Shown one piece after another: positions 3,783-43,580 of a stretch of DNA of 64,000 nt. The notes under the pieces are model-generated. The model was given only the letters and a program-made list of their open reading frames with translations, had not been told where the DNA came from and did no database searches. The translations under genes were made by a program, and so were the position numbers. Source of the DNA: an uncultured Gammaproteobacteria bacterium (GTDB taxonomy: Bacteria; Pseudomonadota; Gammaproteobacteria; GCA-002705445; GCA-002716945); NCBI GenBank assembly GCA_902559355.1, contig CACEHM010000002.1, forward strand, positions 171,246 to 235,245. Direction: 5' to 3'. Position 1 is the first letter of the stretch. Every line of letters starts with the position of its first letter.

Positions 3783-4648
3783 TGAGCTGGTTAGATAAAA
3801 TATTGCCTTCAAGAATTCGTGCCACTAAAGATGATAAAGGTTCAGTCCCTGAAGGACTATGGCATAAATGCAGTAATTGCGGTGCTGTACTATATACTGC
3901 TGAATTTGATAAAAATTCCCATGTTTGTCCAAAATGTAATCATCATGAAAGAATATCTGCGAGAAAAAGAGTAAACATTTTTCTTGATAAGGGTGATCAT
4001 GAAGAAATGTTTAATAATCTCTCTCCAAGAGATATGCTCAAATTTAAAGACAAACAAAAGTATCAAGATAAATTCCAACAGTCTCAAGAGAAAACAGGTG
4101 AAAAAGATGCGCTTTTAGTGTTTAAAGGAAACCTAAAAAACATACCTGTGATAGTTTGTGCCTTTGAATACTCTTTTTTTGGAGGATCAATGGGGTCTGT
4201 TGTCGGAGAAAAGTTTATTAGAGCAGTAAAGCTGTCTATCGAATTAAATAGACCATTAATATGTTTCTCTGCAAGTGGTGGAGCAAGAATGCAAGAATCA
4301 TTGTTCTCATTATTTCAAATGTCTAAAACAAGTGCTGCATTAGCAGAATTATCTGATCATGCGATACCATACATATCTGTATTGACAGATCCAACCATGG
4401 GTGGTGTGTCAGCAAGCCTGGCAGTATTAGGTGATATAAATATTGCTGAACCTAATGCTCTCATCGGATTTGCTGGGCCAAGAGTTATAGAGCAAACTGT
4501 TAGAGAAAAACTACCAGAGGGTTTTCAGCGTAGTGAGTTTCTTCAAGAACATGGAGCTATTGACATGATTGTAGAAAGGAAGGACCAGCCAGATAAGATT
4601 GCTAATATATTAAGTATTCTTGGTTTCCCTTATGAAAAGAAGATTTGA
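3782..4648 (+). CDS. accD: acetyl-CoA carboxylase carboxyltransferase subunit beta
   Basis: Has the N-terminal C4 zinc ribbon CSNCGAVLY...CPKCNHH followed by a carboxyltransferase domain. Confidence 0.9.
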
Positions 4649-34672: not shown

Positions 34673-35562
34673 TGTTTAGAATTGTCAAAGATTTAGATAT
34701 TAAATTTATGAATATTAGAAGAGTTCCATTAATCATATCTGCTCTATTAATATTTATTTCTATGTCAAGTATAGCAGTGAAAGGCTTCAATTTCGGTATA
34801 GACTTTTCAAGTGGGTACATTGTACAGCTGAAATTTGACAATCAAGTTACAGTTGCAACTATTCAGGAAAAACTATATGAAAACAACTTAAACGATGTTT
34901 CGGTTCAGTTATATGGCTCTAGTAATGAAATATTAATAAAGCTTAGAGATGAAGAAATATTTAAAAAAATAAATATTAATAATCATATTAATGAAATCTT
35001 TAAAGATGATACTTTTATTATAACAAAACTTGAATATGTTGGAGCACAGGTAGGTAGCGAATTAAGAGATAAAGGAGAATGGGCAATGTTAATTGCACTA
35101 TTTAGTATTCTTATTTATGTTGCTCTAAGATTCGAGCTGATCTATGGATTAGGTGCTATATCAGCACTAGTGCATGATGTGATAATTACTCTTGGAATAT
35201 TTTCGTTTTTCAATCTAACCTTTGACCTTAGTGTCCTAGCTGCAATTTTAGCTGTAATAGGTTACTCACTAAATGATTCGATTGTCGTTTTTGATCGTAT
35301 AAGGGAGAATAATATCATTCTCAGGAAACTTTCAATATTTGACGTTCTTGATAAATCGATAAATCAGACTCTATCTAGAACGCTTGTAACATCACTGACT
35401 ACACTATTGGTCATAATATCGTTGTTAATGTTTGGAGGCAATGCTGTAGAAAACTTCGCTATCGCAATGCTAATAGGCATAATAATTGGGACTTATTCTT
35501 CAATCTTTATAGCGAGTGCAAGCTTATCTTATTTTGGGATAACTAGGCCTGAGGAAAATTAA
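34672..35562 (+). CDS. secF: protein translocase subunit SecF
   Basis: SecF topology and motifs (FGIDFSSG...). Confidence 0.9.
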   Translation: MFRIVKDLDIKFMNIRRVPLIISALLIFISMSSIAVKGFNFGIDFSSGYIVQLKFDNQVTVATIQEKLYENNLNDVSVQLYGSSNEILIKLRDEEIFKKININNHINEIFKDDTFIITKLEYVGAQVGSELRDKGEWAMLIALFSILIYVALRFELIYGLGAISALVHDVIITLGIFSFFNLTFDLSVLAAILAVIGYSLNDSIVVFDRIRENNIILRKLSIFDVLDKSINQTLSRTLVTSLTTLLVIISLLMFGGNAVENFAIAMLIGIIIGTYSSIFIASASLSYFGITRPEEN

Positions 35563-36290
35563 TTTAGTTTTTTCATATTATTTTCATTAGCCAGTATCAA
35601 ATAATCGCCAGATGTTTCTATGATAATTCCAGCTTCTTTCGCAATAAGTATACAATCTTGATTATGATTATATTCATCCATACTTAATAAATAAAAGTCA
35701 ATTAGACCTCTTGAAAGGTAAATTAATTCAACAGATACAGAATTAAGAGATATTTTTTCCATAGTATTAAAATATTCAGGAATAATTATATCTTTAGAAG
35801 TTCCATAAATAAGTCTTTCTGTACTAATATTTGATCTAATCTTCCTCTGATTATTTACAGAACCAGAACCTTTCTCGCTAAATAGCAATATATCTAGAAA
35901 TGGGTTTAATAAGAACGAAGATATAACATTTTTTTTGTGAATAATTGATAATGATAAAGTCCAAAAAGGTAATTTCCTACAAAAGTTATCATAATCATGT
36001 ATAAAGTTAATTGCCCATACATACGACTCCTCTTTATGTTTTGATGCGTTGTAGATAATATTAGGATCTTCTAGACGAAGTCGCTTCTCATCCTCTATAT
36101 ATGTAAAACTAATAAAATCATTTTCACCAAACTTATAATATGTATTAATATGTTCTACAGCTTTACTCGTAAGTATTTCTCTTACAGGCATATTTTTTAG
36201 TGCATCAGTACTTTTATTAATAAAGAATCTTCTGACTTCCTCTTCAATAAGTTCGCCTGCAGATTTTGCTATATTCAGTCTTGGTTGCAT
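35559..36290 (-). CDS. suhB: SuhB/inositol-monophosphatase-family protein with degenerate metal-binding motif
   Basis: The N-terminus MQPRLNIAKSAGELI parallels SuhB MHPMLNIAVRAARKAG. The gene is divergent from trmJ-iscR, as suhB is in enterics. The W-V-I-DPLDGT-TNF region reads W-A-I-NFIHDY-DNF, so both Asp of DPxDGT are lost. Confidence 0.6.
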   Translation of the reverse strand: MQPRLNIAKSAGELIEEEVRRFFINKSTDALKNMPVREILTSKAVEHINTYYKFGENDFISFTYIEDEKRLRLEDPNIIYNASKHKEESYVWAINFIHDYDNFCRKLPFWTLSLSIIHKKNVISSFLLNPFLDILLFSEKGSGSVNNQRKIRSNISTERLIYGTSKDIIIPEYFNTMEKISLNSVSVELIYLSRGLIDFYLLSMDEYNHNQDCILIAKEAGIIIETSGDYLILANENNMKKLN

Positions 36291-37034
36291 AATATAATTT
36301 TGTTAGATAGTGTATATTACATTATGTCTAGTAATATTAATATTGTTTTAGTTAAGACCAGTCACCCAGGAAATATTGGCTCTACAGCAAGGGCTATGAA
36401 AACTATGGGTTTAAAGAATCTCACTCTCGTGCAACCAAAAAACTTTCCATCCGATATTGCAAAAGCACAAGCTGTTGGATGTGTTGACATTTTAAATAAT
36501 GCTAATATTACTACAGTTTTAAAAGAGGCTTTAGGTTCTTCAAAATTAGCAATCGGCTTCTCAGCAAGATCTAGAAAATCAAATATACCATCACTTTCAA
36601 TGAATGAATTGATGGACCTATTGAATGTGTATGATAAAGAAAATGTTTCTATTGTTTTTGGAAATGAGCAATCAGGTTTATCTAATGAAGAACTTCAATT
36701 ATGTAATTATCTAGTATCTATTCCTACAGACAGTGCTTATACCTCTCTAAATTTAGCATCTTCAGTTCAAATATTTTCTTATGAGTACTTTAAATCATGT
36801 GACGCTAAACCAATCTCCAAAAAACTTCAAGATTTAGCAAGTCATTCCAGTAAACTTGTCTTGATAGAGAAATTTTTATCAATAATGTCTGACTTAGATA
36901 TCATTACAGAAAAGAATAAAAAATCACTTGTCCAAAATATTCATATAATTTTTAATAAAACAAATTTTACTGAAAATGAAGTCAATTTATACCTTGGTAT
37001 TCTTACTAAAATAGGAAAAGCCTTAAAAAAATAA
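36285..37034 (+). CDS. trmJ: tRNA (cytidine/uridine-2'-O)-methyltransferase TrmJ (SpoU family)
   Basis: SPOUT motifs (VLVKTSHPGNIGSTARAMKTMG, VFGNEQSGLSNEEL), located upstream of iscR. Confidence 0.8.
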   Translation: MHNIILLDSVYYIMSSNINIVLVKTSHPGNIGSTARAMKTMGLKNLTLVQPKNFPSDIAKAQAVGCVDILNNANITTVLKEALGSSKLAIGFSARSRKSNIPSLSMNELMDLLNVYDKENVSIVFGNEQSGLSNEELQLCNYLVSIPTDSAYTSLNLASSVQIFSYEYFKSCDAKPISKKLQDLASHSSKLVLIEKFLSIMSDLDIITEKNKKSLVQNIHIIFNKTNFTENEVNLYLGILTKIGKALKK

Positions 37035-37072
37035 TTGTTGACTAGATAAGTCAGGTATATGATAATTCACTC

Positions 37073-37519
37073 ATGAAATTAAGTACTAAATCAAGATATG
37101 CTATCACAGCTATAATTGACCTTGCGCAAAATCAAAATGGCGCAGTTTCTCTTAAGGATATCTCTATTAGACAGGGAATATCCCTTTCTTATTTAGAACA
37201 GCTTTTTTGTAAATTGAAAAATAAAAAAGTTGTAACAAGTAGAAGAGGGCCTGGTGGCGGATACACTTTGAATAGAAAAAGCAGTGATATTTCATTGTTT
37301 CAAATTATTACAGCTGTAGATGAAAATATTGATCAAACCCAATGCGCAGGAAGCATGAATTGCTTAAAAGATAAACCATGTACAACGCATCATGTTTGGA
37401 CCGGACTTAATAAAATTATAAAGGACTATATGAAAAGCATAACTATTGAAGATGTAATTACAAATCAAGTTATACATAATTTGCATGATGCAAGGGAGAG
37501 CAAGACTCATGTCAGCTAA
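37073..37519 (+). CDS. iscR: Fe-S cluster assembly transcriptional regulator IscR (Rrf2 family)
   Basis: An Rrf2 helix-turn-helix ([18 protein letters not shown]...[10 protein letters not shown]) and Cys ligands (CAGSMNC...C). Confidence 0.85.
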
Positions 37520-38756
37520 CACTAAAAAAATAAATTCTACTTTAAGTATTCCAATATATTTGGATTACTCATCAACAACACCTGTGGATAAACGTGTTGC
37601 TGATAAAATGTCGGAGTGTCTAACACTAGATGGAGCTTTTGGAAATCCAGCTTCAAGGTCACACTCTTTTGGTTGGGATAGCGACCATCTTATTAAAACA
37701 GCACGAGCAAATGTTGCTAATCTTCTTAAATGTGATAGCAAAGAAATTGTTTGGACTAGTGGTGCAACCGAATCTAACAATCTTGCAATCAAAGGCGCTG
37801 CACATTTTTATAAATCTAAAGGTGATCATTTAATTACACTTACAACTGAACATAAAGCAGTTTTAGATACTATGAGACAGTTAGAGCTTGAAGGGTACAA
37901 TGTAACATACCTTGATCCTGAGCCAAATGGATTAGTAGATCTTAAAAAACTAGAAGATGCCATAACAGAGAAAACTCTTCTTGTATCCATAATGCATGTA
38001 AATAATGAAATAGGCGTCATACAAGATTTGGAAAGTATTGGTAAATTATGTAAAAAGCATAAAATATTATTTCATGTTGATGCTGCTCAAAGCCCAGGGA
38101 AAGTTGATATTGATGTAAATAAATTTAATGTTGATTTAATGTCATTATCTGCTCATAAAGTCTATGGGCCAAAAGGCATAGGAGCTTTATTCATTAGAAG
38201 AAAGCCTAGAGTTAGGTTAGAAGCTCAAATGCATGGAGGAGGCCATGAAAGAGGTTTTAGATCTGGTACTCTACCAACTCATCAAATAGTAGGAATGGGA
38301 GAAGCTTTCAGAATTGCAAATGAAGAAATGGAAGTTGATAACATACGTATAAGAAAACTTAGAGATAAATTTTGGGCTCAACTTAAAGATGTTGAAGAAA
38401 TATATCTAAATGGTGATTTAGACAGCAGAATCCCTGGAAACCTTAACGTTAGTTTCAATTATGTTGAGGGTGAAAGCTTAATCATGGCAATTAAAGATAT
38501 CGCTGTATCATCAGGTTCAGCATGTACCTCTGCCAGTCTAGAGCCTAGTTATGTTCTTCGTGCACTTGGAAGAGATGATGAACTGGCTCATAGTTCAATT
38601 AGAATTACTATCGGAAGATACACAACTGAAGAAGAAGTCGATTATGCAGTGGAATTGTTAAAAAAATCTGTAGCCAAGCTTAGAGATTTATCACCATTAT
38701 GGGATATGTATAAAGATGGTGTGGATATTAAATCTATCAAATGGAATACACATTAA
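37509..38756 (+). CDS. iscS: cysteine desulfurase IscS
   Basis: N-terminus [15 protein letters not shown]-Lys region [15 protein letters not shown], active-site loop SSGSACTS, and a C-terminus ([20 protein letters not shown]) close to E. coli IscS. The ORF is open upstream to 37485. Confidence 0.9.
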
Positions 38757-38759
38757 TTC

Positions 38760-39080
38760 ATGATTAGTATAACTGAAAAAGCAGCAGATCATATTAAGGG
38801 ACAATTAAGCCAACGTGGTAAAGGTCTAGGCATAAGACTTGGTGTGAAAACTACTGGATGCTCAGGATTAGCATATGTTATAGAGTTCGCTGATAGTGAA
38901 AATGACGATGATAATGTATTTTTAGACAAAGGAATTAAGTTAATAGTAAATCCAAAAAGCTATGTTTATTTAAAAGGCACTGAAGTAGATTTTGCAAAAG
39001 AGGGTATCAATGAAGGATTTAAGTTTAAGAATCCAAATGTAAAAGATACTTGTGGTTGCGGCGAAAGCTTCAATGTGTAA
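38760..39080 (+). CDS. iscA: Fe-S cluster A-type carrier IscA
   Basis: HesB-family protein with the C-terminal CGCGESF motif. It starts 4 nt after the iscS stop. Confidence 0.8.
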
Positions 39081-39571
39081 TGTCACCACTAAACCTTACT
39101 TATTTCGAAATATTTGATGTAGAAATTAACATCTCTATAGATCTTAATGATCTAGACTCGAAATATCTAAAACTACAATCAAAGTTCCATCCTGATAAGT
39201 TTGTCAATGCATCTTCAATTGAAAAATCTATGGCAGTGAGAATATCAACTCATATCAATGATGGTTATAAAACACTAAAAGATCTTGTATCAAGAGTAGA
39301 TTATATTTTAAAAATTAATAACTTTATTATTGACGAAAATAAAACCTTTAAAAACAGTAAATTCTTAGTTGAACAAATGGAACTTACAGAGATAATCAAA
39401 GATAGTGAAAAATCTAAATATGACGCTATTAGAATGGATATTAAAAATAAAATATCTTTATTAATTATAGAGATGAAAAATAATCTTTTTAACAAAGATT
39501 TTGATATACTTCACCAAAATAATTCAATGATAAAATTTTACAAAAAAAACATCAATCAACTCAGTATGTAA
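39080..39571 (+). CDS. hscB: co-chaperone HscB (J-domain)
   Basis: J-domain with HPDKF, upstream of hscA. The start is taken at the ATG that overlaps the iscA stop. Confidence 0.7.
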
Positions 39572-39572
39572 T

Positions 39573-41372
39573 ATGGCTTTAATACAGATATCTGATCCAG
39601 AAATTAAAACCGAGATAAAAAGAAAATTCTCTGTTGGTATTGACCTTGGAACCACCCATTCATTGATAGCAGAAAGAGTAAACAATAAGATTACAATCTT
39701 TGAGGAAAATGGCTCTTCTTTAATTCCGTCTATAGTTTCAGAAGTTGAGGGAAACTTAGTTATTGGTCAAAAACATCATAATAATTCAATATCATCCATA
39801 AAAAGACTTATGGGCTTGACTTCAGATGAAACCTTAAAAATTGACTTTGGTAAATTATTAATTGATTCAAGCCTGGATATGCCAACAGTAAAACTCGGAG
39901 AAAAAAAATATAATGCTATAGAGCTATCATCAAAAATTCTCTCCCATTTATGCTCTATTGCACATAATGATAAGTCTGTTGAATCTGCTGTTATAACGGT
40001 ACCAGCATACTTCAATGATATGCAGCGGCAAGCTACAAAATTAGCTGCAGAGATGGCAGATATTGAGGTATTACGCTTAATTAGCGAACCTACAGCGGCT
40101 GCAATTGCTTATGGTATTCAAGATAACCAGAAAGGAAATTTTATTATTTATGATTTAGGTGGTGGCACTTTTGATGTCTCAGTTCTAACAATTGATAAAG
40201 GTATATTTAAGGTTCTCTCTACTAAAGGCGACACACATCTGGGAGGCGATGATATAGATAGATTGTTGGTTGAGTATATATGTACTAGATATGAAAATTT
40301 ATTAAACCTATCTACAATTGATTTGTATAAACTAGCAAGATCGTTAAAACATCAGTTATCACAAAAAAATATTGCTATAGAGAATAGTCATAATGTCTCA
40401 GTTTCTATCGATGATTTTAATAGTATAATTAATCCGCTAATAGAAAAAACTATCAATATTATAACTGAGGCACTCAATGAATCGTCATTAAGTATAGATC
40501 AAATAAATAATATCATTTTAGTTGGAGGATCATCGAGACTTAAGCTTGTTAAAGAAAAGCTTAATAAAAAATATAATATTAATATTTTAGATCATCTTAA
40601 TCCAGATACTGTGGTTGCTGAGGGTGCTGCTATACAAGCAGAGATTTTATCAGGAAATACTAAAGATGATCTACTATTACTAGACGTATTACCTCTATCA
40701 CTTGGCGTTGAAACATATGGTGGGCTCTCAGAAAAAGTTATTACTAGAAATACTCCAATTCCTACATCATCAGAAAAAACATTTACTACATTTAAAGATG
40801 GACAAACTAAAATGATGATTAAAATAGTCCAAGGTGAGAGAGAGGACATATCGGAATGTATATCTTTAGGTGAATTTGTTTTATCTGATATTCCACCTCT
40901 TGTCGCTGGTGCTGCAAGAATACTTGTTAGGTTTCAAGTTGATGCTGACGGCCTATTAACTGTTAGTGCAAAAGAACAAACCATAAATAAGGAAGCATCA
41001 ATAGTAATTAAGCCTTCACATGGTTTAACTCCTGAGAAAATTCAAGAAATGATCACTTCATCTAATAAAAAAGCTGAAACTGATAAAGACTTTAGAGCTC
41101 TAAAAGAGCATATTGTTGAATCTGAAAGAGCAATTTATGCAATAGAGGAGGCCTTGAAGACAGACAGCGATGAATTATTGAATAAAACTGAACTTAAATT
41201 GATCAATGATGCCGTTACAAAGTTAAAAAATACCATCAAAACAAATCATCTAGATGCTATTAAAGACGCAAATAAAAATCTTGAAAATATTTGCGAATTT
41301 TATGTAGAACGAAGAATGAATAATAGCATCAAGTCATTAATTACAGGCAAAGATATTAATGATATAGTGTGA
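39573..41372 (+). CDS. hscA: Fe-S assembly chaperone HscA (Hsp70-type)
   Basis: Hsp70 signatures ([27 protein letters not shown]). Confidence 0.9.
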
Positions 41373-41713
41373 TTATGCCAAAATTAACATTTCTACCAAA
41401 CTCTGAACTCTGTCCCGAAGGAATTACAGTTGATGCTAAAAAGGGTGATTCGATTTGCAAAATTGCCTTGGATAATGGAATAAAAATTGAACACGCATGT
41501 GAAATGTCATGTGCCTGTACAACATGTCATGTTTATATCAATAACGGTTATGATACTTTAGAATCACCAACTGATGATGAAGATGATTACCTTGACAAAG
41601 CATGGGGATTAAGACCGGAGTCACGACTAAGCTGTCAAGCCAAGATCGCAGATGATGATTTGGTTATAGAGATACCAAAATATACGATTAATCATGCTTC
41701 GGAGAATCACTAA
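41369..41713 (+). CDS. fdx: [2Fe-2S] ferredoxin of the ISC system
   Basis: Cys pattern [12 protein letters not shown]...C. Confidence 0.85.
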
Positions 41714-41913
41714 TGCCACTTAAATGGACAGATAGCCTTGATATTGCAATTGATTTAACTGAAAAATACCCTGATATAGATCCAAAGTACATTCGGTTTA
41801 CTGATCTCCATAAGTGGGTTGTTGAGTTAGAAGATTTTGAAGACAATCCTGATAATTCAAATGAGAAAATACTTGAAGCAATTCAAATGAACTGGATAGA
41901 GGAATCACAATAA
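41713..41913 (+). CDS. iscX: Fe-S assembly protein IscX
   Basis: 66 aa, acidic, beginning [15 protein letters not shown], immediately after fdx. Confidence 0.7.
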   Translation: MPLKWTDSLDIAIDLTEKYPDIDPKYIRFTDLHKWVVELEDFEDNPDNSNEKILEAIQMNWIEESQ

Positions 41914-42314
41914 TGGAACAGACCTTGGCGCTAATAAAACCTGATGCTGTTGAAAGAAATATAATTGGAAAAATATTAGCAATGATAGAAAATGATAACT
42001 TCAAAATAAGACATATGAAGTTAACTCAAATGTCTGAACAACTTGCTAAAACATTCTATGCTATTCATGAAGGAAAGTCATTTTATGATAAATTAATAAA
42101 ATATATGACCTCTGGAAGTATTATTGCGTTAGTACTTGAAAAAGAAAATGCTGTTGCAAGTTATAGAAAATTAATTGGAGCAACTGACCCAGCTAAAGCT
42201 GACGATAACACTATAAGAAAGCTTTATGCGCTTGATAAATCATTCAATTCAGTGCATGGCTCTGATTCAGTTGAAAATGCAAAGATAGAGATTTCTATTA
42301 TGTTCGGTGACTAA
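41913..42314 (+). CDS. ndk: nucleoside-diphosphate kinase
   Basis: N-terminus LALIKPDAVERNIIG, active-site His in NSVHGSDS, and the C-terminal EISIMF. Confidence 0.85.
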   Translation: MEQTLALIKPDAVERNIIGKILAMIENDNFKIRHMKLTQMSEQLAKTFYAIHEGKSFYDKLIKYMTSGSIIALVLEKENAVASYRKLIGATDPAKADDNTIRKLYALDKSFNSVHGSDSVENAKIEISIMFGD

Positions 42315-43580
42315 ATGAGTAATCTAATTTCTAAAAAAATACGTGGCTTCCGTGACATTCTTCCTATTGAAAGTAAGAAATTTCTTTATATCGAAAATGT
42401 AATTCATAGAATTGCACCATTATTTAATGTTCAACAAATTAGATTACCTGCTCTTGAGTCAATTGATTTATTTAAAAGATCAATAGGTGAAACATCCGAT
42501 ATAGTTACAAAAGAAATGTATTCCTTTGAGGATAGAAATAATGATATTTTGTGTATGATTCCTGAGGGAACAGCTTCATGCGTTAGACTGGCATTAGAAA
42601 ATAATCTTATCTATGATAGAGGTCCTAAAAAACAACGGTTATACTACATAGCGCCTATGTTCAGACATGAGCGCCCTCAGAAAGGAAGGTATAGACAGTT
42701 TACACAATTTGGCGCAGAGTTCTTTGGTGATACATCATACACAAATGACATAGACCTTATTTTGTTAATAACAAAGATTTTTGAAAAACTTAATTTATTA
42801 GATATTAAGTTATCTATAAATACAATTGGCACTGCTGTTGACAGAAAAAAGTATTCTCAAGAATTAGTTACATATTTTCATTCTTGTAGTGAGGAATTAT
42901 CCGATGCACAACACGATACTTTAAGTAAAAACCCCATGAGATTACTTGACAGTAAGGACCCAAAACTAAAATCTATCATTGCATCTGCCCCGCTTATTAG
43001 TGGTTTTCTTAATGAAGAATCACAAGCTAATTTTGATACTATCAAGGAAAAACTTGATAGATTAAAAATTCCTTTCATACATGATCCTAAATTAGTACGA
43101 GGACTTGATTATTATAATGACCTTGTATTTGAATGGAAAACCAATAAACTTGGTTCCCAAGACGCTGTATGTGCGGGTGGAAGATATGATAATCTATCCG
43201 AAACTATAGGAGGCAAGCCTGTCCCATCTGTAGGTTTTGCGATGGGCTTAGATCGAATTGTAGAGCTTGTAGACTATGAATCAAATGTATTAATTATTGG
43301 TCTAGCTGTCATTAGTAATTCAAATGATGAAAGTTATAAAATTCTGAACTCATTAAGAAAAATTGACTTAACATTTAATCTTATTCATATGGATGATAAT
43401 AAATCACTATCCAAGCAAATAAAGCAAGCTGATAAGTCTAACTGCGATATTTTAATAATTGTAGGCAATGATGAAATAAGTAATAATACGTTTACTGTAA
43501 AACACTTGAAATGTGACAGGAAAGACCAAAATATTCCATTTGGGCAGCTAATTGATTTAATAACAGAGTATAAGAAATGA
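42315..43580 (+). CDS. hisS: histidyl-tRNA synthetase
   Basis: Class II aaRS motifs (MFRHERPQKGRYRQFTQFG, GGRYD). Confidence 0.9.
   Translation: MSNLISKKIRGFRDILPIESKKFLYIENVIHRIAPLFNVQQIRLPALESIDLFKRSIGETSDIVTKEMYSFEDRNNDILCMIPEGTASCVRLALENNLIYDRGPKKQRLYYIAPMFRHERPQKGRYRQFTQFGAEFFGDTSYTNDIDLILLITKIFEKLNLLDIKLSINTIGTAVDRKKYSQELVTYFHSCSEELSDAQHDTLSKNPMRLLDSKDPKLKSIIASAPLISGFLNEESQANFDTIKEKLDRLKIPFIHDPKLVRGLDYYNDLVFEWKTNKLGSQDAVCAGGRYDNLSETIGGKPVPSVGFAMGLDRIVELVDYESNVLIIGLAVISNSNDESYKILNSLRKIDLTFNLIHMDDNKSLSKQIKQADKSNCDILIIVGNDEISNNTFTVKHLKCDRKDQNIPFGQLIDLITEYKK

Follow-up and report, generated by a model that had tools for sequence, protein, structure and literature searches.

An isc operon without iscU in a low-GC marine gammaproteobacterial clade, and a probable second locus for the scaffold gene

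How does a bacterium build iron-sulfur (Fe-S) clusters if its iron-sulfur cluster (ISC) operon holds every expected gene except the one for the scaffold, IscU? The question is raised by a 64,000-nt stretch of DNA from an uncultured Gammaproteobacteria bacterium (contig CACEHM010000002.1 of assembly GCA_902559355.1, positions 171,246 to 235,245, forward strand; hereafter the window), in which iscA follows iscS directly within an otherwise regular iscR-iscS-iscA-hscB-hscA-fdx-iscX operon. Tight coupling of iscS and iscU is usually treated as a hallmark of ISC operons. We favor, at a probability of about 75%, a split ISC system in which iscU has a separate locus of its own, next to an IscR paralogue that lacks the cluster-ligand cysteines (the rrf2-iscU module). 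That this genome encodes some iscU outside the operon, at whatever locus, is highly probable. The literature that we searched contained no description of an iscU-less isc operon paired with an rrf2-iscU module.

The isc operon lacks iscU

The preliminary description of the locus reported the operon as missing only iscU, with all other members in canonical order, and the assignments bear this out: each of the seven genes had its best match to the NCBIfam model of that name. Features are given by position in the window.

36285..37034, + strand: trmJ, tRNA 2'-O-methyltransferase (NCBIfam TIGR00050, 195 bits); upstream neighbor of the isc operon, also in relatives
37038..37066, + strand: promoter-like site, TTGACT, 17 nt, GATAAT (promoter scan); overlaps the IscR-box-like inverted repeat
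37038-37058: IscR-box-like inverted repeat, TTGACTAGATAAGTCAGGTAT; overlaps the promoter and is kept 5' of iscR throughout the clade
37073..37519, + strand: iscR, Rrf2-family regulator (TIGR02010 IscR, E 1e-51)
37509..38756, + strand: iscS, group I cysteine desulfurase, 415 amino acids (NF010611, 739 bits against a cut-off of 548)
38757..38759: spacer TTC, 3 nt, at the canonical iscU position; no iscU remnant
38760..39080, + strand: iscA, A-type carrier, 106 amino acids (TIGR02011, 165 bits against a cut-off of 150.6)
39080..39571, + strand: hscB, J-type co-chaperone, 163 amino acids (TIGR00714, above cut-off)
39573..41372, + strand: hscA, Hsp70-type chaperone, 599 amino acids (NF003520, 657 bits, above the HscA-subfamily cut-off)
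41375..41713, + strand: fdx, ISC [2Fe-2S] ferredoxin (TIGR02007, 173 bits, above cut-off)
41713..41913, + strand: iscX (yfhJ) (TIGR03412, 112 bits, above cut-off)
41913..42314, + strand: ndk, directly abutting iscX, an arrangement shared with pseudomonads, and followed by hisS (NF001908; synteny)

The iscS stop codon (TAA, 38754-38756) and the iscA start codon (ATG, 38760) are separated by the three nucleotides TTC, in agreement with the positions noted previously. The whole operon is tightly packed. The start of iscS is most likely 37509, as in the gene calls of relatives (415 amino acids), giving an 11-nt overlap with iscR; hscB starts at 39080 in a TAATG shared with the end of iscA; the start of fdx is most likely 41375, judging from the 112-amino acid calls in relatives; and iscX overlaps ndk by 1 nt. 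Overlapping genes and a window GC content of 30% are typical of a streamlined genome. The active-site Cys loop and the C-terminal IscU-docking helix of IscS are intact in alignments using Escherichia coli numbering. At its N terminus, the window IscS is extended by about 10 residues.

The absence of any IscU-like open reading frame (ORF) from the window, also claimed earlier, held in tblastn, profile and motif searches. Queries with E. coli IscU and Bacillus subtilis SufU returned nothing below E 0.89 by tblastn, and an IscU profile hidden Markov model run against all six-frame stop-to-stop segments returned nothing below E 0.9. No ORF in the window bears the LPPVK motif, and neither IscA nor the neighboring ORFs contain an LPPVK-like motif. 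Searches of the window with NfuA, SufE, CyaY, and SufB gave no significant match apart from the N-terminal A-type domain of NfuA, which matched iscA itself (tblastn, E 1.4e-4). SUF genes and SufU/NifU-type scaffolds were likewise not found within the 64 kb.

The best matches of the window IscR are IscR models, but at 174 bits it falls below the curated cut-off of 207.55 and clears only that of the Rrf2 superfamily. Its translation contains the cluster ligands C-X5-C-X5-C-X2-H (three Cys and one His), and the inverted repeat upstream is one that we take to resemble a type 1 IscR site of E. coli.

The junction is shared by relatives and retained iscU marks the sister lineage

The iscS-iscA junction without iscU occurs on more than 30 independent contigs from short-read, long-read, metagenome-assembled genome (MAG), and single-amplified genome (SAG) sources. 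This recurrence excludes an assembly artefact and with it a gap at 38756-38760, the trivial cause that the preliminary description had allowed for. Seven independent seawater contigs have an identical IscA protein together with the same junction.

In an IscS scan covering one genome per species, the closest relatives (76-77% identity) were four marine gammaproteobacterial MAGs (L008-L011, GC 0.30-0.33). All four contain iscR-iscS-iscA-hscBA and none contains iscU, and fdx-iscX-ndk comes next in three; the contig of L009 ends inside hscA, where these genes are not visible, and is too short for the ISC tree. The deletion is therefore shared by four other species-level genomes of a low-GC (~30%) marine gammaproteobacterial clade; the iscS-iscA spacers of relatives range from 3 to 20 nt. 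In marine metagenomes, relatives of HscB (60-98% identity) make up a large family whose clusters number 96-306 members. At every place examined, among them long-read contigs (468-785 kb), NCBI MAGs, and one SAG-like assembly, iscA directly followed iscS. None of the relatives examined had an IscU within 10 kb on either side of the operon.

A neighbor-joining tree of concatenated IscS, IscA, HscA, and Fdx, from which L009 was left out, grouped the window with the iscU-less L008, L010, and L011, and placed this group as sister to L055, which has iscU. The sister lineage (L055, L077, and L095-L097; GC 0.29-0.30, with 1.1-Mb contigs, GCA_038141665.1) encodes a 132-amino acid IscU (399 nt) between iscS and iscA, and its synteny, yajC-secDF/suhB/trmJ-isc-ndk-hisS, equals that of the clade. 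Since the sister keeps iscU within the same synteny, the gene was cut cleanly out of the operon once the two lineages had split. The same gap occurs in at least three other gammaproteobacterial lineages, namely L039/L050/L052 (GC 0.55), the Arenicellales MAG L081, and the Thiohalobacter MAG L027. In the ISC tree, these do not form a monophyletic group with the window clade.

The clade is probably SAR86-related, based on its habitat, GC content, and genome size, on the clustering of phage-like IscU sequences with its sister, and on a published phage IscU whose nearest homologues are those of SAR86 (PMC5332604). We also ran a relative-rate test of ISC proteins against the sister lineage and discarded it: HscB of the iscU-less clade shows the greater divergence (30-32% vs 43% identity to a panel), but Ndk is more diverged there as well, so the HscB divergence is not specific.

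IscU-binding surfaces of IscS, HscB, and HscA

In E. coli, the parts of IscS that touch IscU are helix alpha8 (309-316) and the helix at the C terminus (379-391) (Shi et al. 2010, PMC2854127), and without residues 376-404 IscS no longer binds IscU (PMC2854127). Neither region differs in any clade member. All 112 clade HscB proteins retain HPD and the residues equivalent to E. coli L92 and F153. This leaves two of the three key IscU-contact residues and the J-domain conserved, and the other iscU-less lineages (L039/L050/L052, L081, and L027) keep all canonical IscU-contact residues of HscB. Among 170 HscA positions that are at least 95% conserved in operons with iscU, eight are changed in the clade; three of these eight fall in the substrate-binding beta-domain, which has 54 invariant positions. 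Such conserved IscU-binding surfaces make a scaffold-free ISC system unlikely. The ISC machinery looks as though it is still built for an IscU-like client, with drift at the chaperone-client interface.

Outside these surfaces, IscS positions that elsewhere reach 95% conservation or more are altered specifically in the clade: A47S, K101S/T, and I163L, together with loss of R116. R116 presumably belongs to the patch for CyaY, IscX, and Fdx and not to that for IscU.

A stand-alone rrf2-iscU module in low-GC marine contigs

Searches with the IscU of the sister lineage recovered only highly conserved IscUs (at least 83% identity), none of them tied to the long contigs of the clade. Three candidates among the IscU matches nearest to the sister lineage were considered and rejected, P0031 and P0111 for their phage-like contexts and P0102 for its position in a canonical operon. 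Scanning metagenomes for an iscU immediately preceded by an IscR box of the clade's type gave zero matches. A second metagenome scan, for the IscU motif DHYENPRN with the AT-rich Arg codon AGA, returned 120 loci, which comprised canonical operons, many phage-like iscU genes often accompanied by an A-type carrier, some eukaryotic mitochondrial ISCU genes, and bacterial Rrf2-IscU pairs without iscS. Several AT-rich matches of mitochondrial type (L129, L139, L150, L179, L191, and L120) have N-terminal presequences and LPPVKLHCSMLAED and presumably derive from protists in the metagenomes.

The low-GC Rrf2-IscU pairs are exemplified by L142 (GC 0.345) and L159 (GC 0.30). Their gene order is an Rrf2 protein of 144-151 amino acids, IscU of 125-126 amino acids, a DUF2892-like membrane protein of 70 amino acids, and an HhH-GPD glycosylase, with aceA-icd-infA-DUF1249 upstream in L142. 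A search with the L159 IscU found the same type in abundance: P0352 covers 216 contigs (292 index blocks) of up to 870 kb, and further L159-type IscUs were counted on 210 (P0360), 130 (P0330), 129 (P0364), and 123 (P0312) contigs. All 20 places listed share one context, exbB...acn-hflD-mnmA-aceA-icd-infA-DUF1249-rrf2-iscU-DUF2892-alkA-like...ydjM...ggt-purL. The low-GC rrf2-iscU locus is chromosomal and lies among housekeeping genes.

The orphan IscU is a true IscU, scoring 227.6 bits against the TIGR01999 cut-off of 192.4 and keeping Cys37, Cys63, Cys106, Asp39, His105, and LPPVK. The NifU/SufU-type replacement raised in the preliminary description is unsupported. The Rrf2 protein of the module is nearest to IscR (TIGR02010, E 1e-37 to 1e-43) but reaches only 126-146 bits against the cut-off of 207.55, and it is missing all three cluster-ligand Cys. 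Without these ligands it can only resemble apo-IscR, the cluster-less form of IscR that acts at type 2 sites in E. coli.

A Cys-less rrf2 directly 5' of a canonical iscU, with no adjacent iscS, was found in L142, L159, L223-L232, L263-L272, L143, L207, L218, L188, and L210. Copies at higher GC, namely 0.41 (L188, L210), 0.48 (L218), and 0.55 (L143, L207), share only the rrf2 and iscU genes. Coordinates of three of these modules are as follows.

L143, 1504-2361: higher-GC rrf2-iscU module
L207, 4463-5320: higher-GC rrf2-iscU module
L218, 1365-2277: higher-GC rrf2-iscU module

Stand-alone iscU genes, often with an A-type carrier, were also common on phage-like marine and freshwater contigs, as in L099-L101 (IscU at 4001-4408), L098 (1344-1742), and many of L103-L222. 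Besides iscU, the phage-like contigs encode ribosomal protein S21, AAA_5, SLT, and numerous short ORFs. In the IscU tree, their sequences group with the low-GC sister lineage, and iscU is also present in a few phage entries of INPHARED.

Linking the module to the clade

We infer that the orphan module resides in the genome of the window on the basis of composition, complementarity and abundance, and the absence of sister-sized contigs. Composition was compared as the correlation of GC-normalized tetranucleotide profiles against ~70 reference loci. The low-GC orphans L142, L159, and L263 best matched the iscU-less L008, L010, and L011, with correlations of 0.76-0.89, while their correlations with phage-like contigs (0.3-0.5) and Thioglobus-like contigs (0.4-0.6) were much lower. 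For the GC 0.55 orphans L143 and L207, the top four matches were L052, L039, L050, and L081, all of which are iscU-less, ahead of iscU-containing loci of equal GC; the split may thus be a recurrent or shared arrangement.

Any lineage whose iscU stands alone needs iscS and hscBA at some other site, which points to the operon of this clade, the sole abundant low-GC iscU-less operon that we found. Among the matches listed, the orphan IscU is about as abundant as the clade's HscB clusters and ~10x as abundant as the in-operon IscU of the sister lineage. Among the best 120 IscU matches listed, no orphan-type IscU has a longest contig that reaches the 1.1 Mb of the sister lineage, which argues weakly against the sister as the owner of the module. 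Two further comparisons were made. The 20-kb orphan loci showed no overlap with the window beyond Rrf2/IscR homology, and an IscU phylogeny was set aside for placing the orphans as its resolution was too poor.

Proposed arrangement

Under the split reading, ISC in the clade would function normally, its scaffold gene having been relocated from the operon to another site in a streamlined low-GC marine genome. One unit, iscR-iscS-iscA-hscB-hscA-fdx-iscX, would be expressed from the IscR-box promoter. The other, elsewhere in the genome, would consist of the Cys-less IscR-like Rrf2 gene followed by canonical iscU, between infA/DUF1249 and the DUF2892-like and HhH-GPD glycosylase genes, with iscU presumably regulated by the neighboring Rrf2 paralogue. 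As in E. coli, IscS would dock IscU via alpha8 and the C-terminal helix and pass on sulfur, and Fdx would supply electrons. HscB and HscA would recognize IscU by its LPPVK motif, and the cluster would then be released to IscA and target proteins.

A bolder version is conceivable but tentative, and we consider it somewhat less probable than its opposite: that ISC is deliberately split in several gammaproteobacterial lineages, among them a surface-ocean clade that ranks with the most abundant, with iscU under a dedicated, permanently cluster-free IscR paralogue and iscS, the carrier, and the chaperones under the cluster-sensing IscR. Scaffold supply would thereby be uncoupled from desulfurase supply, and the client-binding residues of HscB and HscA would have drifted accordingly.

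Weighing the alternatives

Several observations count against the split reading. Among the entries listed, the iscU-less operon and the orphan module never occurred together in one contig, MAG, or SAG, and the assemblies listed for HscB (GCA_036129075.1, GCA_029979505.1, the SAG-like GCA_902511695.1, and ERZ285480xx) do not overlap with those listed for the orphan IscU (GCA_028245655.1, GCA_028042585.1, GCA_028044555.1, ERZ1699694, and ERZ23498669). In composition, the iscU-containing sister follows close behind for L142, L159, and L263 (0.74-0.86), and the iscU-less clade (0.81-0.89) is not cleanly separated from that sister (0.82-0.86). No clade-type IscR box was found upstream of the orphan module. 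At the chaperone-client interface, the equivalents of HscB M93 and E97, which are 94% Met (the rest Leu) and 84% Glu in 63 loci with iscU, are hypervariable in the clade (T/S/V/I/N/L and E/I/M/A/K, respectively). HscA of the clade has Tyr in place of the arch Met (ETMGG to ETYGG) and clade-specific A413K, H417K/N, and R430I/N changes (window numbering) near the substrate cleft. Together, the HscB M93/E97 and HscA cleft changes could reflect an altered client.

An altered client would suit a genome with no U-type scaffold at all, in which IscS loads IscA or another carrier directly and HscB/HscA are retargeted to a different client. This explanation accounts for the lack of IscU in the 64 kb and within 10 kb of the operon in relatives, for the HscB hypervariability, which is confined to this clade, and for the HscA changes beside the cleft; it also fits with no operon-bearing long contig being tied to an IscU match, although among the best 120 matches listed this is uninformative either way. 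We nevertheless judge it improbable. The IscS docking helices for IscU are invariant, as are HscB L92, F153, and HPD, the HscA substrate-binding domain is largely conserved, no substitute LPPVK-like motif is present in IscA or the neighboring ORFs, and orphan iscU genes abound on compositionally matching contigs. To our knowledge, no free-living organism has HscAB without IscU, which counts further against it. Of the two options in the preliminary description, a scaffold encoded elsewhere or local chemistry free of IscU, the constraint on IscU-binding surfaces and the abundance of rrf2-iscU in matching contigs favor the former.

Assembly of clusters by other machinery elsewhere in the genome, either SUF or a NifU/SufU scaffold, would leave the operon to serve mainly IscS sulfur trafficking (e.g. 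tRNA thiolation) and cluster carriage. IscS does have roles independent of IscU, through TusA and ThiI (PMC2854127), but the window has no Suf, SufU, or NifU signal, the scaffold on the matching contigs is IscU, and the accessories specific to the ISC scaffold (hscB, hscA, fdx, and iscX) are all undamaged in a compact run of genes whose stop and start codons overlap, making this explanation similarly doubtful. We give equally little weight to an iscU at another locus or in a prophage, with the rrf2-iscU module belonging to some other low-GC lineage. Many phage-like contigs do carry iscU close to that of the low-GC clade (PMC5332604), and the link between module and clade is compositional only. 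The phage-like contigs are, however, compositionally distinct, and the module's owner still needs iscS and hscBA, for which the clade's operon is the only abundant low-GC candidate found. The recurrence of the junction, on more than 30 independent contigs and in the representatives of four further species, leaves a negligible probability for an artefact of assembly or binning or for a deletion confined to one strain, and we found nothing in support of either. The split reading thus remains preferred. It comes close to the simple relocation under IscR control that the preliminary description had also considered, with the differences that the regulator beside iscU is a Cys-less paralogue and that module and operon are placed in one genome by indirect evidence.

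Implications

The split varies gene order and regulation within a well-known pathway, and it does not overturn the mechanism of Fe-S assembly. If real, it would mean that tight iscS-iscU coupling is dispensable in free-living bacteria, and it would point to separate control of scaffold expression, through an uncharacterized Cys-less IscR paralogue, in a marine clade of global abundance. In practice, completeness calls on MAGs of this clade will falsely flag ISC as scaffold-less whenever the operon contig alone is binned.

Neighboring genes and related operons

Other small differences surround the operon. The window has no cysE between trmJ and iscR, and at its ndk/hisS junction (42314-42315) it is missing the rodZ-like HTH_25 gene found there in the sister lineage (L095-L097, 10147-10996); these losses are consistent with further small deletions during genome streamlining. 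The gene at the suhB position (35559-36290, - strand), divergent from trmJ, is itself strongly diverged, with weak NCBIfam matches only. Its homologues in relatives have no Pfam match, while the gene of the sister lineage is a clear Inositol_P member. In L023, L027, L043, L064, L106, L113, and others, a second IscS-like desulfurase (~35% identical) lies between iscR and iscS.

Comparison with known systems

The window shares its proteins, gene order, and flanks (trmJ; ndk and hisS) with the canonical ISC operon, represented by E. coli iscRSUA-hscBA-fdx-iscX and the Pseudomonas-type operon with ndk, and like that operon it has an IscR with cluster ligands and a box-like promoter repeat. Unlike it, the window has no iscU between iscS and iscA and no upstream cysE, and its genes overlap or abut. 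The sister lineage (L055, L077, and L095-L097) is nearest in the ISC tree and resembles the window in synteny and GC, differing by its iscU and the rodZ-like gene. The operons of L039/L050/L052, L081, and L027 have the same iscR-iscS-iscA-hscBA-fdx-iscX order as the window, with iscS-iscA spacers of 11-70 nt.

The module itself has two partial parallels. Nishimura et al. 2017 (PMC5332604) described IscU and A-type carrier auxiliary genes encoded by phages, one of which was attributed to a SAR86 host. Like the orphan module, phage iscU genes stand alone on AT-rich marine contigs and have sequences near the IscU of the low-GC clade, but their context is viral (S21, AAA_5, and many small ORFs) and their composition distinct, whereas the orphan module sits among acn, mnmA, aceA, icd, infA, and purL. 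The Rrf2 protein of the module parallels apo-IscR in being IscR-like without Cys ligands, but it is encoded by a separate gene and scores below the IscR cut-off.

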